From an uncultured archaeon (GTDB lineage Archaea; Altiarchaeota; Altiarchaeia; JAFGQM01): a stretch of 29,093 nucleotides of DNA. Under the pieces are notes generated by a model. The model was not told where the DNA came from and ran no database searches. It was given only the letters and a program-made list of their open reading frames with translations. Position 1 is the stretch's first letter. The number at the start of each line of letters is the position of its first letter. Shown here piece by piece: positions 2,264 through 12,265 of the stretch. Position numbers and translations under genes: made by a program. The stretch is taken from contig CAZQBY010000009.1 in NCBI GenBank assembly GCA_964592405.1, positions 20,087-49,179 of the forward strand, in the 5' to 3' direction.

Positions 2264-2341
2264 AAAATTTTTTAAATGTTTTTAAATCATGTTTCATAAC
2301 CATAACGTCGCGGGAGGTTTCTAGAGGGCTTGACAGCAGTG

Positions 2342-5300
2342 ATGAAATTGGGATACCCTCTGGCAGGAATTAGCATTATAATATTGGTCTTAGGTTTCAC
2401 ATACGCCATAAGCGCAAATACCACAGACAACATCGCCCTCAACACTGATAAGACAAACTATACGCTGGGTGAGACTGTCAATATAAGTCTTACAGCTCCG
2501 GACAATACATCCGCTTCACTGTATCTGCTTCCGCCATCCGGAGATGTCCTCTTTCTGTTGAACAACAAGACAGGTTCATTCTCAACCCTCTACACCCCCC
2601 GGGAGGTCGGCAACTACACCACTGTCTGTGAAGTCCTGAACCTCTCTGCGACACTGAACGCCGACTTCACGGTAACAGGACCGCTCCCGGGGGGGTCAGG
2701 GGGCAACCTGACGAATGTTATGGATGAGGAAAAAGCGCCCGCAGTCAACATCTCCGAGACTCCTTTTTCCAATGGGAGCAGCAGGGAGCCGGCTAACAGG
2801 ACAGATGTCCTGACAGCCAATAGAACAATCGCATCCAACAAGACTGGTTATGAACCTGCCGACAATAGAGACATTCCATCCAACAGAATACCAGAGGTTG
2901 CGCCCTCTGATGCCTCTTTGTTCATAGAAAACAGGACCTATGCACCGGGGGATGAAGTGGTCATACAGCTTTATATACCTGAAAATCTCAGCCCATCTCT
3001 GACGCTGATTACCCCGGATGGAGATGCCCTCTCACTGATGCTCAATGAAACAGGTGTGGTCTGGAAGAGATACACGCCGAGGGAGCCGGGGCATTATAAC
3101 GTCTTTTACAGGATAGCAAAGATCGGAGTGGACCTGAAGGACGCATTTACAGTAATTAATATGACTCTCCCAGAGAATGCTTCAGAGAAGAGTAATGAGA
3201 CTGGGGAAGAAGGTGTTGCATCCAACCGGACAATTCCGTCCAACAGAACAGCGCCATCCTACAATATCACCACCAGTATCACAATCCCCAATGCCTCCAA
3301 TATCACAATTCAAACTGATAAAAGGGAATATCATCCATGGGAAGAAGCCGAAATACGGCTGGAGCTTCTCTCAAACCAGTCATGCCAGTTGGAAGTCATA
3401 ACCCCCTCCGGGGAAGCACTAGTACTCATATCGGCTCATGCCGGTGTATTCTCGGCCCAATACCGCCCGCAGGAGAAAGGAACATATACCGTCACCTGCA
3501 AGCCGCTGAATCTCTCAACAAGATTTACGGTCCTAGAGCCTGTCTTCCATGTCGGCTCATGGCAGGAGGCCAGACTCACGGCAGGAGCAGGCGGGCAGGT
3601 GGCCGCAAAAATACACCGAATCTCGGCAGGCCGTTTGGAGGTTTTCCCAAAATCCACTCCAATTAAAAAAATTGAATTTGACAGCATAAACCTCACCCAA
3701 AGGTTTGATCTTGGTCTGGATGAGATACCCCCGGGGGCGGTTAGCGAACATGATTTCATCCGGGTGTATGCCATAGATCCAAGCAGGCTGGAGTTCGCCT
3801 ATGCCAACGTTACCGTAACCGCCACAGGCACAGAGCTCTACAAGTGCAAAGACTGGGACTTCACCAGCCAGAAATGCCTTGGCGAATGGGAGCTCTTCAA
3901 GAGGGATCTTGTTCCCGGTCAGAACTACACCTTCCAGCTCACTAAGGAGGATCCGGGCTTTGGCGAGAGCATAACGATAATCGACATCCAGAGCTACCCT
4001 ACGGTGGGTGGCAACTGGACTGTTAGGTTCACCACCAACGGAACGGCGAACCTGACGATTACGGCAGTGAACGGGACTACCTGGAGCGACTCCGACGAGG
4101 ACGAGGATTTGAGGTTCCTGGAGGTGAAGTGCGGAGAGGATGTCCTAAGTTATGATTGGGTAGGCAATTCCATCTTCATCGCCGATTATTCCTGCAATGA
4201 GACGGGTTATGAGGTGAGCAGGGTACTGACATCCGGCAAGCACACGCTGGAGTTCAGGTTCGGCGACCAGACGAAGTATGCGCACAATTATGCCGGGTAT
4301 GAGGGCGACAACGTGACCCTCATCTACGCCACCACCTTCGGGCAGGACGTGGAGACCCCGACACCGCTGAACCTGAGCGCGGAGATGCGCAAGGACTCCG
4401 GCTTCACGCACAGCACGACCGTGAACCCGGAGAGGCTCTACGTGAACGTGGCCGGATGGTATAAGGTCTCTTATGGATGCCACTTCACGCAGCAGTCGAC
4501 GGGAACTAACCACCGGCTTATAGTGGAGACCTGGGTTGAGAACACAGGGACGGAGATAGTGCCCAGCAGGACCTCCTGTTACATAAGGGACAGTGAGTCG
4601 GACAGGAACAGGTGCTCCAACAAGGGTACGTTCATAGTCAGTCTGAACGATGGGGACTACCTAGAGCTGTGGGCGAATAAGACGAAGGGTACCGGGACCA
4701 ACCCGGCCACGACGGAGTCCTGCTACATGTACGTCCAGATGGTGAACAACGATGTCGCCCAGATGTACGACGCAGACGGTGAGGATGACTTCCACGAGAC
4801 GAATGAGATAACAGTCAGCATCGACACGACGACCTTCGCGGATTCGGACTTCGCAGCCGACACGGACGAGTATGCGTTGAACGTGACCTCGGGAGGGTGG
4901 TACAAGATATACTACCACACCTGCTCCCACAACTATTTGACTACCAACAGGAACAGCGTTCAGACGTACATAAGGAGGAACGGGACCAAACTAGAGCCGA
5001 GCGATGTCTTCTCATACCTGAGGAACGAGGATGCCGACGGGACCCCCGGAGACCGAAACTGTGAGGCCGGATACCTGCTGTACAACCTGTCCGCCGGAGA
5101 TTCCATCGACATGAGGCACACCAAAATCGGCTGGGAGACCGCCTCCCAAAACTCCAGGACGCTGCCCGGCCAGAGCTGGCTGCTGATGGAGAAGATAAAC
5201 CACAGCGACGTCTTCATGGCCTACGATGAGGACATCCACACCGGGACGACCATGATAAACCTCACCACAAACTACCATGTGGGGAGCTCCTACAGCCACA

Positions 5301-8284
5301 GCGACAACGCCTCAAGGATTTACATAAACCGGGACGGTTGGTACGAGGTGTCCTACACAATGGGCTACAATGAGACAACAGGCAGCAACAATCGCAACAT
5401 CCTCTGCGGCGGCCTGTACAAGAATGGGGTAGTTTACTACCCGTCATGGCAGTGCCACTACTCTAAATTCCAGGGCGGGGGCCAGTATGCGACAATAAGC
5501 GCCAACGTGATTATGAACATCATGAGCGGCGAATACATCGAGCTCCAGTTCGCCCCAGAGGAGGCCACCGGGACGACAGTCAGGAACGCCACCTGGGTGA
5601 CGATAATCCCACTGGACACGCAAGACCTCACGCCGCCCACACTAAACTGGGACTGGGCGGACATAAACTCCACAACCAGCTACAACTCCACAACCATCTG
5701 CGTCAGCCTGTCGGAAACCAGCAACTGCACCCTGCACTTCAACGGCACGGACTATGTGAATACCACCACAGGAACACATATCTGCTGGAACCAGACAAAC
5801 AAGCCCAACGGCAATTACTCAAGCATCAACGCGACCTGCGAGGACGCAGCTGGCAACGGCGCCAACACCACCACGGCGTGGTGGAACGTGAGTTTCAATT
5901 CCCTTGACACCACGCCCCCAAAGATAACCTGGACCTGGTCGGACATAAACTCGACATCCACCACTACCCGAACCACCAATGTTACGCTGACTGTGGATGA
6001 AACTGTGCCGGAATGCAATCTGACGGTCAACGGCACTGTATATCTCATGAACTATGCGGGGAATAATGTCTGGTGGCAGAACCTGACCAACTTTGCCAAC
6101 GGCAACTACACCGTGTGGGCCAACTGTTCTGATGCAGCTGGCAATCTCGGAAACTCGACAATCGCATGGTGGAATGTGAGCTTCTTCCAGGCGCCGCGGT
6201 GGTCGAACAATGAAACCAATGCCACCACCAATGTCACTCACTATGGCAACACTGTATATTTCAATGTCACACTGAGCGACGATTGGGAGGGCAATTACTC
6301 GATATTCTACTTCTACAACGGGACGGACTGGAACAGCGACCCGCCACAGGCATGGACAACACCACAGGAGCTTCAGAGAATCATACAGATAAATGCGACG
6401 AGGGGCGCACTAATCAAATGGTACTGGTGGTTCAACGACTCGCACGGCATTTCCAACCAGACCGATGTCTGGAACTTCACAGTCGGCAACAGCCCGCCGA
6501 CGCAGGGGACACCCATACTCAACTCCAGCTGGGATACCAACTACACCTATGAGAACCTGACCTGTTACAACCAGAGCACGGCTGATGCTGATGGAGACTC
6601 GGTCAAAAACATTTATAACTGGACTGTAGATGGAGCCTCCATCTTCCTGACGCTGGCACCCTTTGAGGGTGGTTCCAATGACACTTGGACCAGAGACTAT
6701 TCGGGGGCGCTCGGCTATAACCTGACAGCATCCGCCACATGGAACAAGACAGGCGGTTATGACGGCAGGGGAGCATATGAATTTAACGGTATTGATGAGT
6801 ATATAGATTTGGATGAAGACGGTGCTAGCCCTGTCTATGATGCGGCCTTCAACACAAGGACGGTGGCGCTTTGGTTCAAGGCAGATTCTGTGGCAGGAGC
6901 AACCTACAGGATGCTCTATGAAGAGGGGGGTAGCGTGAACGGTATGAACATCTACATCTATGACGGCAGGATATATGCGGGCGCCTGGAGCGAGGGCGAC
7001 GGCTGGCAGGGCAACTGGAGCAGCTTTCCGGTTACAGCTGATGAATGGCATTTTGCGGCGCTGATCTTTGATGGTCCGGGAGGCAGTGTTTCCCTGTTCT
7101 ATGATGGGCACCTAAACACAAGTAACAGCTATAGCACCCAAGTTGCGGGCCACAGCGGCGACGATGGCATAGGCTGGATGGATGGTTCCTCCAAGGGGCA
7201 TCTTGGGGACTTGAGCGGGGGCGGGAACTACTTCAACGGGACAATAGACGAGTTCATGGCATTTGGCCGGGCCCTTAGCAATGAGCAGCTGAATGCGACA
7301 TACTGGAGCCGGACCAATACTATAGTCGCTCAAGAGACTGCCGTGGGCGAGACATGGCAGTGTAGTATAATCCCAAATGACCTCTACGACGACGGAGAGG
7401 GCATAGCCTCAAATACCCTCTTGGTCCTGCAGGACAACAAACCCCCAAACCTGGACTGGAACTGGTCTGATATAAACTCCACAATCAATGTAACCTCAAC
7501 CACTGTTTGCGTCAACGCATCAGAAAGGGTGAACTGCACCCTCCACTTTGCAGGATCGACATATACAAACACAACCAAAGGGACAAACATCTGCTGGACC
7601 ATAACAGGCCTGAGCAAGGGCAACTACACGCCCGTCAATGCAACATGCGAGGATCTAGGAAGCAACAAGGCGAATACAACCAACGCTTGGGTCTATGTGA
7701 GGCCGGATATGTGGCATGTCTTCTGCGGCAACGTCAGTGGGAGGCTCTACCTGCGGAACTTTTCGATAATGTATAACTGGACATGGGATGGGGATAGTAA
7801 AGGGGATGGCAATGTCTATGCATATGCGAGCGGCGCAGATATAGACTGGGAGAGTCTAGTAGCCCTTGGCAGGACCACTCTGGGCGGACCAGCCAGCGAT
7901 GATTTTGAGGAAGTAGACACTGTCCTTGGAACCGCAAGCTACGTCAATGACACAAACCGGACCTTCAGCACGGACGGGAGCACACCAAAGAACACCACAA
8001 CCTTTGTGGTCAAGACACGAACTATAAGCAATGTCCCCATAGTCAACTCCACGGATACGTGGGCGTTTGTTACCGGGATACTCTGGGATTCATCTGATAC
8101 AGTGGGCGACAACGAGTTTGATGCCTTGGACAACGAAGATCTGGTGTTCGTAACGAAGATAAATGTGACGGCCTCCAGTTCCTGCTCACCGGGGGCAAAG
8201 TATGAGATACGCCTCCCGGACACGCTCGACACCTACAAGGGAGGCTCCGGCAGGGTCAATTTTCAGGCTGAAATCTCGCTATAG
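2342..8284 (+). CDS. Giant secreted multidomain surface protein/adhesin (3x MG2/Ig-like, 3x C1q/TNF-like, Ig-like repeats, LamG, C-terminal putative pilin-like domain)
   Basis: Signal peptide MKLGYPLAGISIIILVLGFTYAISA, very many N-x-S/T sequons, LamG motifs (YEFNGIDEYI, TVALWFK, WHFAALIFDG, FNGTIDEFMAFGRALS), internal repeats, no C-terminal TM. Start may be TTG 2330 or ATG 2342. Confidence 0.85.
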   Translation: MKLGYPLAGISIIILVLGFTYAISANTTDNIALNTDKTNYTLGETVNISLTAPDNTSASLYLLPPSGDVLFLLNNKTGSFSTLYTPREVGNYTTVCEVLNLSATLNADFTVTGPLPGGSGGNLTNVMDEEKAPAVNISETPFSNGSSREPANRTDVLTANRTIASNKTGYEPADNRDIPSNRIPEVAPSDASLFIENRTYAPGDEVVIQLYIPENLSPSLTLITPDGDALSLMLNETGVVWKRYTPREPGHYNVFYRIAKIGVDLKDAFTVINMTLPENASEKSNETGEEGVASNRTIPSNRTAPSYNITTSITIPNASNITIQTDKREYHPWEEAEIRLELLSNQSCQLEVITPSGEALVLISAHAGVFSAQYRPQEKGTYTVTCKPLNLSTRFTVLEPVFHVGSWQEARLTAGAGGQVAAKIHRISAGRLEVFPKSTPIKKIEFDSINLTQRFDLGLDEIPPGAVSEHDFIRVYAIDPSRLEFAYANVTVTATGTELYKCKDWDFTSQKCLGEWELFKRDLVPGQNYTFQLTKEDPGFGESITIIDIQSYPTVGGNWTVRFTTNGTANLTITAVNGTTWSDSDEDEDLRFLEVKCGEDVLSYDWVGNSIFIADYSCNETGYEVSRVLTSGKHTLEFRFGDQTKYAHNYAGYEGDNVTLIYATTFGQDVETPTPLNLSAEMRKDSGFTHSTTVNPERLYVNVAGWYKVSYGCHFTQQSTGTNHRLIVETWVENTGTEIVPSRTSCYIRDSESDRNRCSNKGTFIVSLNDGDYLELWANKTKGTGTNPATTESCYMYVQMVNNDVAQMYDADGEDDFHETNEITVSIDTTTFADSDFAADTDEYALNVTSGGWYKIYYHTCSHNYLTTNRNSVQTYIRRNGTKLEPSDVFSYLRNEDADGTPGDRNCEAGYLLYNLSAGDSIDMRHTKIGWETASQNSRTLPGQSWLLMEKINHSDVFMAYDEDIHTGTTMINLTTNYHVGSSYSHSDNASRIYINRDGWYEVSYTMGYNETTGSNNRNILCGGLYKNGVVYYPSWQCHYSKFQGGGQYATISANVIMNIMSGEYIELQFAPEEATGTTVRNATWVTIIPLDTQDLTPPTLNWDWADINSTTSYNSTTICVSLSETSNCTLHFNGTDYVNTTTGTHICWNQTNKPNGNYSSINATCEDAAGNGANTTTAWWNVSFNSLDTTPPKITWTWSDINSTSTTTRTTNVTLTVDETVPECNLTVNGTVYLMNYAGNNVWWQNLTNFANGNYTVWANCSDAAGNLGNSTIAWWNVSFFQAPRWSNNETNATTNVTHYGNTVYFNVTLSDDWEGNYSIFYFYNGTDWNSDPPQAWTTPQELQRIIQINATRGALIKWYWWFNDSHGISNQTDVWNFTVGNSPPTQGTPILNSSWDTNYTYENLTCYNQSTADADGDSVKNIYNWTVDGASIFLTLAPFEGGSNDTWTRDYSGALGYNLTASATWNKTGGYDGRGAYEFNGIDEYIDLDEDGASPVYDAAFNTRTVALWFKADSVAGATYRMLYEEGGSVNGMNIYIYDGRIYAGAWSEGDGWQGNWSSFPVTADEWHFAALIFDGPGGSVSLFYDGHLNTSNSYSTQVAGHSGDDGIGWMDGSSKGHLGDLSGGGNYFNGTIDEFMAFGRALSNEQLNATYWSRTNTIVAQETAVGETWQCSIIPNDLYDDGEGIASNTLLVLQDNKPPNLDWNWSDINSTINVTSTTVCVNASERVNCTLHFAGSTYTNTTKGTNICWTITGLSKGNYTPVNATCEDLGSNKANTTNAWVYVRPDMWHVFCGNVSGRLYLRNFSIMYNWTWDGDSKGDGNVYAYASGADIDWESLVALGRTTLGGPASDDFEEVDTVLGTASYVNDTNRTFSTDGSTPKNTTTFVVKTRTISNVPIVNSTDTWAFVTGILWDSSDTVGDNEFDALDNEDLVFVTKINVTASSSCSPGAKYEIRLPDTLDTYKGGSGRVNFQAEISL

Positions 8285-8316
8285 TTATGGGACTGAAGGT
8301 TTATGGGGCTGAAAGT
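8285..8316. repeat. Imperfect 16-bp tandem duplication (ttatgggactgaaggt / ttatggggctgaaagt)
   Basis: Two adjacent copies with 2 mismatches immediately after the adhesin stop codon. Confidence 0.6.
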
Positions 8317-8330
8317 TAAAAGTTTAAACC

Positions 8331-8356
8331 AAGCATTTATATAGATGCTTATATAA
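8331..8356 (+). promoter_or_regulatory. Putative archaeal promoter: TATA box (TTTATATA) inside a 20-bp near-perfect palindrome, second TATA-like element TTATATAA
   Basis: aagcatttatatagatgctt (8331-8350) is self-complementary except for one pair. It lies 55-80 bp upstream of the ATG at 8411. Confidence 0.55.
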
Positions 8357-8410
8357 AATCCAGTAGTAAATACACATTCATAAATCAAACAAAACTAAAA
8401 AGCCCAAAAA

Positions 8411-12265: not shown

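Follow-up and report, generated by a model that had tools for sequence, protein, structure and literature searches.

A domain family with candidate tip, shaft and base roles in a possible strand-donation surface fibre of an uncultured altiarchaeon

The stretch of DNA analysed here, 29,093 nucleotides of contig CAZQBY010000009.1 from an uncultured archaeon of the Altiarchaeota (the window), carries four consecutive genes on the plus strand (2330-12265), which encode a giant adhesin, a small subunit, a conserved partner protein referred to as ORF3 (open reading frame 3) and a membrane anchor. The adhesin gene (2330-8284, +), read from a TTG start at 2330, specifies a Sec-secreted protein of 1984 amino acids (1980 in the database copy, which starts 4 codons later) that contains immunoglobulin (Ig)/filamin-like repeats and a Laminin_G_3 (ConA-like) domain at residues 1507-1654. 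Its last Ig/FN3-like repeat (7430-7711, +) closes with a strand (..NAWVYV) 4 residues ahead of the tryptophan of the C-terminal domain (CTD; 7712-8284, +), an adhesin-type variant that begins with WHVFCGNVSG, has no TEGGN segment and runs to the end of the protein. The small, or major, subunit (8411-9103, +; 230 residues) consists of a Sec signal peptide (1-23), an N-terminal segment (24-67) and a core (68-230). ORF3 (9192-10949, +; 585 residues) opens with a signal peptide and ends in a membrane helix, with a CWB2-like region (about residues 44-300) and beta-rich domains in between; its stop codon overlaps the start of the anchor gene by 4 nt. In the anchor (10946-12265, +; 439 residues) a signal peptide (1-24) leads to the segment and the family domain (23-209), after which come a Cys-rich stretch, a stalk rich in beta structure and, towards the C-terminus, a membrane helix (393-412).

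The same beta-sandwich domain of about 165 residues forms the C-terminus of the adhesin, the body of the small subunit and the N-terminus of the anchor, and a family-profile search across the whole genome (1.13 Mb, 87% complete) finds these three copies only, all in this cluster. The original prediction held that a segment precedes the conserved W.GY.G strand in the small subunit and the anchor and is absent from the adhesin. Its peptides and coordinates are exact (SDITEGGNITVLNI at 8543-8584, SDVAEGGIISVLVL at 11021-11062, WHVFCGNVSG from 7712), and BLASTP and profile ranges both confirm the asymmetry. The two peptides are identical at 8 of 14 residues. BLASTP aligns the small subunit with the anchor at E=2e-7 and 26% identity, starting inside the segment, and with the last 190 residues of the adhesin at E=2e-5 and 24% identity, starting exactly at the tryptophan; the adhesin CTD compared directly with the anchor gives no significant match (E=0.055). 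A first profile covers positions 3-227 in the small subunit, 42-224 in the anchor (E=6.2e-13, segment included) and 60-211 in the adhesin (E=1.3e-11, segment excluded), and a deeper profile covers 1-228, 42-225 and 65-212; these ranges place the pre-tryptophan segment in the small subunit and the anchor and show it to be missing from the adhesin.

Within the small subunit the conserved core of the segment, TEGGNITVLNIT (8552-8587, +; residues 48-59), is the proposed donor element. The segment lies 24 residues beyond the predicted cleavage between TAYA and VSPAG, whereas the anchor's copy, SDVAEGGIISVLVL, follows its Sec-type signal peptide directly, 2 residues past the predicted cleavage between ...LLPTGLGA and ESDV...; cleavage sites were assigned by eye, without a predictor. 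The candidate acceptors are the beta3-loop-beta4 regions of the adhesin (SGRLYLRNFSIMYNWTWD; 7736-7789, +) and of the small subunit (..SLIVLANSNLDIFYNWSW; 8648-8701, +; residues 80-97). At the other end of the domain, the alternating hydrophobic strand claimed for all three copies stands in part: all are strand-like (YYFYVELS, VNFQAEISL, YYIYALFS), and terminal strands are assigned by DSSP at 224-229 in the model of the small subunit and at 276-283 in that of the adhesin tail, but strict alternation is confined to the adhesin.

Relatives of the small subunit are numerous and anonymous. Scans at E<=0.1 assign it to no Pfam or NCBIfam family; as a single sequence it retrieves nothing relevant from the Protein Data Bank (PDB), and a 110-member profile searched against all PDB chains returns 0 hits at E<=10. 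Of 1293 candidates from a word-indexed search, 31 proved to be relatives, every one unnamed or "hypothetical"; searching exhaustively with a profile raised the number to 1547 representative clusters at E<=0.001, of which 304 reach E<=1e-30. Going by named records, the family is found in Micrarchaeota, Iainarchaeota, Woesearchaeota, Methanosarcinaceae, Methanoperedens and metagenome-assembled genomes (MAGs) of Nitrosotalea; in the window's own phylum it occurs in 6 of the 61 genomes searched. Full-text searches found no literature on the family or on the TEGGN motif, supplements and subscription journals lying outside their coverage. Conservation peaks at a Sec-type cleavage site and in the motifs TEGGN-I/V-T/S..N-L, T..W-A-G-Y/F-Y-G-N, Y.W.W, GGEVC, F-C, DYEL.VP and a terminal TETYYFY.EL. 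Of 110 members, 104 have A23; in the segment G51 is invariant (110/110), N52 occurs in 103 and T/S54 in 107, and a second sequon of the small subunit, at N74, is conserved too. The model of the small subunit has about 11 strands and 2 short helices. Cysteines C106 and C190 (8726-8728 and 8978-8980), each present in 93/110 members, are the top co-varying pair of the family (mutual information with average product correction, MI-APC, 0.375), and judging from this pattern they probably form a disulfide across the sandwich.

Some lineages depart from this layout. Loci L081, L082, L087 and L043, of a lineage that includes a Nitrosotalea MAG, encode shaft-like subunits of 340-365 residues with an extra N-terminal domain of about 130-160 residues ahead of a divergent segment, A-Q/K/R-GGF-V/I-TEI. 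Anchor-like proteins of 513-576 residues at L028 (16629-18269, -), L031, L052, L073 and L100 still match the profile only at 42-77, that is, over the segment and the W strand; a divergent full domain lies downstream, and the segment is their best-kept part.

Across the family, presence of the segment follows protein class. A strict form of the motif is found in 90/116 small subunits from the database (107/116 with a loose form), in 48/71 of those derived from the loci (59/71 loose) and in 14/23 anchor-type proteins (18/23 loose). None of the 16 locus-derived adhesin-type CTDs carries the strict motif, the single loose match (1/16, by a broader pattern) being an unrelated IGGD/TGGD, and the 24 database tails carry neither form (0/24 each). 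Small subunits that miss the motif belong to divergent lineages, where forms such as AAGGNIT occur; in anchors the motif stands 2-8 residues past the signal peptide, and the remaining anchors have degenerate forms such as PGGNIT or AEGGVIS. In adhesin-type tails 0-4 residues separate the last Ig- or CARDB-like strand from the tryptophan. By these counts the asymmetry is conserved across this type of operon and is no accident of one genome. A second, internal TEGGN-like strand by which anchors might complement themselves was considered and rejected, the profile alignment showing just 4-8-residue insertions at that place.

The gene neighbourhood is conserved as well. In 77 loci, ORFs were called and scored with three profiles (small subunit, adhesin-type tail and ORF3), and 67 unique loci remained; L038 (on the contig of L014) and L015 (a second adhesin contig) had been set aside beforehand, and the other exclusions were L048 (no match), L080 (the same as L044) and nine without a complete major-subunit gene. 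Excluded locus L015 (G002:C27, 6278-11794) holds the second adhesin of the same type in a sister genome, on another contig, with no subunit gene within the 1.4 kb fetched downstream. An ORF3 gene lies within 700 nt of the subunit gene in 44/67 loci; where 400 nt or more of downstream sequence is available, the figure is 42 of 53. Anchor-type genes occur in 21 of the 67, adhesin-type genes in 14 and all four genes in 6, counts that are lower bounds because many contigs are short. Several loci, such as L044, L049, L050, L056, L061 and L095, have two or three tandem paralogous small subunits.

Part of ORF3 is related to the CWB2 modules of bacterial cell-wall proteins. Its family profile matches Cwp6 of Clostridioides difficile (PDB 5j72) at E=4.6e-9 over profile positions 108-269, and Pfam CW_binding_2 is the only family matched at E<=0.1, in 7 of 12 homologues (best E=4.2e-6); the window's own ORF3 scores 16.2 bits, under the Pfam cut-off of 24.9. 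Its structural neighbours in the Atlas are CWB2 proteins, with template modelling (TM) scores of 0.38-0.47 normalised by the query. The likeness to the clostridial system is limited to this one protein, which is itself archaeal and ends in a membrane helix.

Structure prediction treats the segment and the core differently. The AlphaFold2 (AF2) monomer of the small subunit, built on a 28-row alignment, reaches a mean predicted local distance difference test (pLDDT) score of 73 and a predicted TM score (pTM) of 0.67. Residues 22-61 fall below pLDDT 50, so the segment is not packed on its own core in this model, and block means drop to 58-69 over residues 61-100 (W strand through beta4), compared with 78-94 elsewhere. 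The unplaced segment is compatible with strand donation, as far as a monomer model can speak to it, and is no proof of it. In the adhesin tail (27 rows; mean pLDDT 85, pTM 0.79) the sole weak stretch of the CTD again runs from the W strand to beta4 (58-74, against 86-97 elsewhere). Predictions of a three-copy complex of the mature small subunit on a 110-row alignment scored 0.48, 0.31 and 0.00 in separate runs against a mark of 0.42, without controls, and tell neither for nor against binding. Residue co-variation within the family (MI with APC and mean-field direct coupling analysis, DCA; 247 sequences) gave no credible contact for the N-terminal segment, the DCA output being noise.

Sixteen anchors whose profile match reaches position 200 were compared with small subunits (19 pairs; 10000 label permutations). 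In the N-terminal segment (columns 45-59) identity is 0.585 between anchor and subunit of one locus and 0.413 between loci, a difference reached in 0/10000 permutations; own exceeds other in 16/16 anchors, and with 10 non-redundant anchors the count is still 0/10000. The other regions, which serve as an internal control, show nothing comparable: 0.33 own against 0.31 other in the W strand (60-76; 1690/10000), 0.08 against 0.09, with no own-locus excess, in beta3-beta4 (77-97; 7583/10000), and 0.21 against 0.22 in the rest of the domain (98-228; 8676/10000). Everything in the domain outside the segment, taken together, gives 0.19 against 0.20 (9156/10000). Pairs of small subunits of comparable divergence have a segment identity of 0.39 (76 pairs). 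Recent gene conversion was considered as the source of the similarity in the window and rejected, since synonymous sites differ between the two segment-coding sequences.

The reciprocal signal appears between adhesin and subunit (14 adhesins, 15 subunits, compared in the same way within and between loci). Here it is the beta3-loop-beta4 region that is closer within loci, at 0.441 against 0.335 (0/10000 permutations; 12/10000 with 9 non-redundant loci), with own above other in 10/14 adhesins, while the W strand (0.48 against 0.42; 877/10000) and the rest of the domain (0.23 against 0.22; 1072/10000) give no significant difference. As read from these alignments, one element is common to and co-evolving in subunit and anchor and absent from the adhesin, and another is common to and co-evolving in subunit and adhesin and degenerate in the anchor.

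Homology of the three domains, class-specific presence or absence of both elements, synteny and co-variation are thus matters of observation. From them we infer polymerisation and a physical contact between donor and acceptor; that the contact would be a donated beta-strand is suggested by analogy with archaeal threads, the TasA, ABP (archaeal bundling pili) and Tafi filaments and chaperone-usher pili. The reading we favour, with confidence that is about evenly balanced, is a Sec-dependent surface fibre built from a domain family with three roles and the polarity adhesin <- subunit(n) <- anchor, in which the contact would most likely be beta-strand donation or augmentation in trans. The small subunit would combine a donor (TEGGN-I/V-T/S..N-L) and an acceptor edge (the W strand and beta3-beta4) in one protein and could therefore link head to tail. 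The adhesin core, with an acceptor and no donor, would fit the distal end only, and the anchor, with a donor after its signal peptide, a degenerate beta3-beta4 and a membrane helix, would plug only into the last, cell-proximal subunit; the proposed polarity follows from this distribution. At each joint the N-terminal segment of the cell-proximal protein would bind, in trans, the W/beta3-beta4 edge of the cell-distal one. The adhesin would form the tip, its lectin-bearing passenger pointing outward, the small subunit the shaft and the anchor the base, and assembly would do without a chaperone, usher, sortase or signal peptidase of its own. ORF3, the constant CWB2-like neighbour in the membrane, would be an accessory component, and giants that keep the segment could be subunits placeable anywhere in the fibre. 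The polarity had been put forward in the original prediction; it fits the two reciprocal, lineage-specific co-variation signals and the conserved asymmetry, and the interpretation as a whole is partly supported. The cluster type is probably a previously undescribed variant of the strand-donation pilus.

Several observations weigh against this model. Loss of the segment is, contrary to the earlier generalisation, no rule of the family: among the best profile matches, 44/57 giants of more than 300 residues keep the strict TEGGN internally, before the C-terminal domain (55/57 with the loose pattern). Since the motif is kept there behind large passenger regions, a free N-terminus is not needed and loss from the adhesin is not universal; as far as the sequences go, segment loss marks one adhesin class and not all large family proteins. 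The segment itself departs from a simple pattern of alternating hydrophobic residues and contains a conserved N-x-S/T sequon, and its spacing to the tryptophan is nearly fixed (14-16 residues in the examples read), which would suit a hairpin in cis too. The adhesin domain is modelled confidently without the segment, and no likeness in fold or sequence to any solved pilin was found. The permutation counts ignore the relatedness of loci and derive from 15-16 columns and 9-16 loci, with the other regions as internal control; the low anchor identity in beta3-beta4 is partly a matter of gappy alignment, and the co-variation could stem from a shared third partner such as ORF3.

We consider an explanation without strand exchange unlikely. 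TEGGN would then be the first strand or hairpin of the domain itself, formed in cis, or else a tag that ORF3, with its CWB2-like region, would recognise, and the domain would be a shared surface-attachment module; adhesin, small protein and anchor would be displayed separately, and the adhesin variant would have lost its first strand through direct fusion to an Ig-like repeat. The internally placed segment of the giants, the near-constant spacing, the pLDDT above 90 of an adhesin domain devoid of the segment, the lack of likeness to known pilin folds and the standing of ORF3, related to glycan-binding modules, as the most constant neighbour (42/53) all agree with it. Local hairpins, however, are usually predicted with ease, and AF2 leaves the segment unplaced in cis. 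The anchor's segment, moreover, tracks the segment of the same-locus subunit and not the divergence of its own core, the reciprocal adhesin-subunit signal in beta3-beta4 has no ready explanation under separate display, and tandem paralogous small subunits occur here as in pilus operons.

Strand donation has also to be weighed against covalent or processing-based assembly, a quite improbable scheme, in which the invariant GG-N would mark a point of cleavage or ligation, to be linked with the free C-terminus or a side chain of the more distal domain; the polarity would be the same and the logic that of sortases or of the isopeptide of threads. G51 is more tightly conserved than is usual for a donor strand, and the domain match stops within 4 residues of the C-terminus in all 150 profile matches listed, as far as the table was read, while more protein follows in anchors. 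An adhesin with a free C-terminus and no motif, together with an anchor with a motif and no free C-terminus, is the pattern of head-to-tail joining, and threads use an N-terminal isopeptide, according to PMC9715654. Against this, the four operon proteins contain no sortase, archaeosortase, peptidase or transpeptidase family, no C-terminus resembles a sorting signal, and no lysine is conserved, position 67 being K in 54/110 and R in 48/110 members. The view that the segment is mainly an N-glycosylation site and linker, whose absence from adhesin tails would be incidental and uninformative on assembly, draws on the conserved sequons at N52 and N74 and on the sequon-rich adhesin, but is highly improbable given that the non-sequon residues T48, E49, G50, G51, N57 and L58 are equally conserved and that the lineage-specific co-variation includes non-sequon positions.

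The arrangement recalls several known fibres without coinciding with any of them. In type 1 and P pili (FimH, FimG, FimA, PapH) the pilin domain of the two-part tip adhesin is devoid of an N-terminal extension; subunits of the shaft combine that extension with a groove, and the base is occupied by a specialised terminal subunit. The parallel drawn with these pili in the original prediction survives as an analogy: adhesin-type tails do lack the segment (0/16 and 0/24), but the fold comparison detects no likeness of the family domain to chaperone-usher pilins, and the Pfam and NCBIfam scans of the four operon proteins (E<=0.1) reveal no PapD-like chaperone or usher. The present domain is also larger, and the base subunit is here an integral membrane protein; an outer membrane is lacking in archaea. 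In Gram-positive bacteria, sortase-dependent pili likewise express the order tip adhesin-shaft-base in which subunit has which joining element. The four operon proteins show no LPXTG-like signal, sortase, archaeosortase or conserved pilin-motif lysine, and in the small subunit and the adhesin the chain stops just past the last strand, with no hydrophobic stretch beyond it. A class III signal peptide with a hydrophobic N-terminal helix that is retained after processing, as in type IV pilin-like filaments, was not seen by eye in the small subunit, where the Sec-type cleavage site is followed by a polar segment.

Archaeal strand-donation pili that assemble without chaperone or usher (threads, ABP, Tafi and cannulae) have been recognised only recently. 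The threads of Sulfolobus acidocaldarius (Saci_0406) are the closest parallel in design: as PMC9715654 and PMC11607397 describe them, they too are archaeal, with a Sec signal peptide, heavy N-glycosylation and a beta-rich domain, and the conserved N-terminal tail of each subunit inserts into the next. These sources also propose that a one-element paralogue, Saci_0405, caps one end, again with no usher, and one-element paralogues occur in the present cluster too. The thread cap is portrayed there as a donor without acceptor, whereas here the acceptor-only protein is the giant adhesin and the terminal protein with a donor is membrane-anchored; for threads, neither the polarity nor the function of the cap has been settled (PMC9715654). 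Thread homologues are described as crenarchaeal, unlike the family here, whose cluster also includes a CWB2-like partner. Homology to Saci_0406 was not detected: PMC9715654 describes the structure of threads as solved, and the 110-member profile still has no hit at E<=10 among all PDB chains; no fold match between the family domain and threads is reported.

The jelly-roll filaments of TasA, ABP (AbpA), Tafi (TafA, TafE) and cannulae share with the proposed fibre an N-terminal strand and chaperone- and usher-independent assembly (PMC12337348). Tafi loci, in the same source, have a proposed tip protein, TafC, and a membrane anchor, TafF, with a jelly-roll-like domain, in parallel with the proposed tip and anchor here. 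They differ in a SipW-type signal peptidase, TafD, and in export of the pilins via Tat (again PMC12337348); the present cluster has neither and uses a Sec signal. The Pfam scan of the four operon proteins (E<=0.1) shows no Peptidase_M73 or the like, and no SipW-type peptidase is found in these or in the ten neighbouring ORFs scanned. A 2026 report describes a pilus of candidate phyla radiation (CPR) bacteria that has chaperone-like genes and uses donor-strand exchange (PMC13278184).

It is tempting to extend the favoured reading to archaeal pili of a widespread and so far undescribed class, in Micrarchaeota, Iainarchaeota, Woesearchaeota, Methanosarcinales and Nitrosotalea, an extension we hold tentatively, with somewhat less than even confidence. 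Such pili would be Sec-dependent and free of chaperone, usher, sortase and SipW-type peptidase; their order would be set by the distribution of donor and acceptor among acceptor-only lectin-bearing giants, pilins with both elements and a donor-only anchor, accompanied by a CWB2-like partner. In small-genome DPANN archaea the fibre may hold the cell to its host. An unannotated family of 1547 representative clusters thereby acquires a candidate tip, shaft and base, a constant fourth gene and a polarity predicted by sequence features, so that a handful of constructs could directly test in what order such fibres assemble, how they are anchored and what giant adhesins do in episymbiotic archaea with small genomes. 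If the reading is true, it would supply names for thousands of "hypothetical" archaeal surface proteins.

A few further features of the proteins and their surroundings deserve mention. The adhesin has 103 N-x-S/T sequons (5.2 per 100 residues) against about 35 expected from composition, compared with 0-0.6 per 100 in four cytoplasmic proteins of the window taken as controls; the excess suggests very dense N-glycosylation. ORF3 has zero sequons in 585 residues (2.8 expected) despite its predicted extracellular location. Directly after the family domain of the anchor (residues about 213-240; window about 11582-11665, +) comes the Cys-rich stretch C.WCGDGIC....DC..CP.DCG.C, and anchors of other lineages have a conserved cysteine 3-5 residues past the last strand, followed by Pro/Gly-rich linkers. 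The assembly seems to hold another giant, P0178 (2014 residues), which has the Ig-like repeat in common with the adhesin (61% identity over 29% of the query) and ends in a membrane helix, not in the family domain.

The cluster is surrounded by archaeal housekeeping genes (topoisomerase VI A and B, geranylgeranyl reductase and LonB). Just downstream of it lies a tRNA-Asn(GTT) gene (12893-12966, -), which overlaps the 3' end of a called ORF (12332-12955); together with the patchy distribution in the phylum (6/61 genomes), this tRNA gene might mark the cluster as a transferred island.

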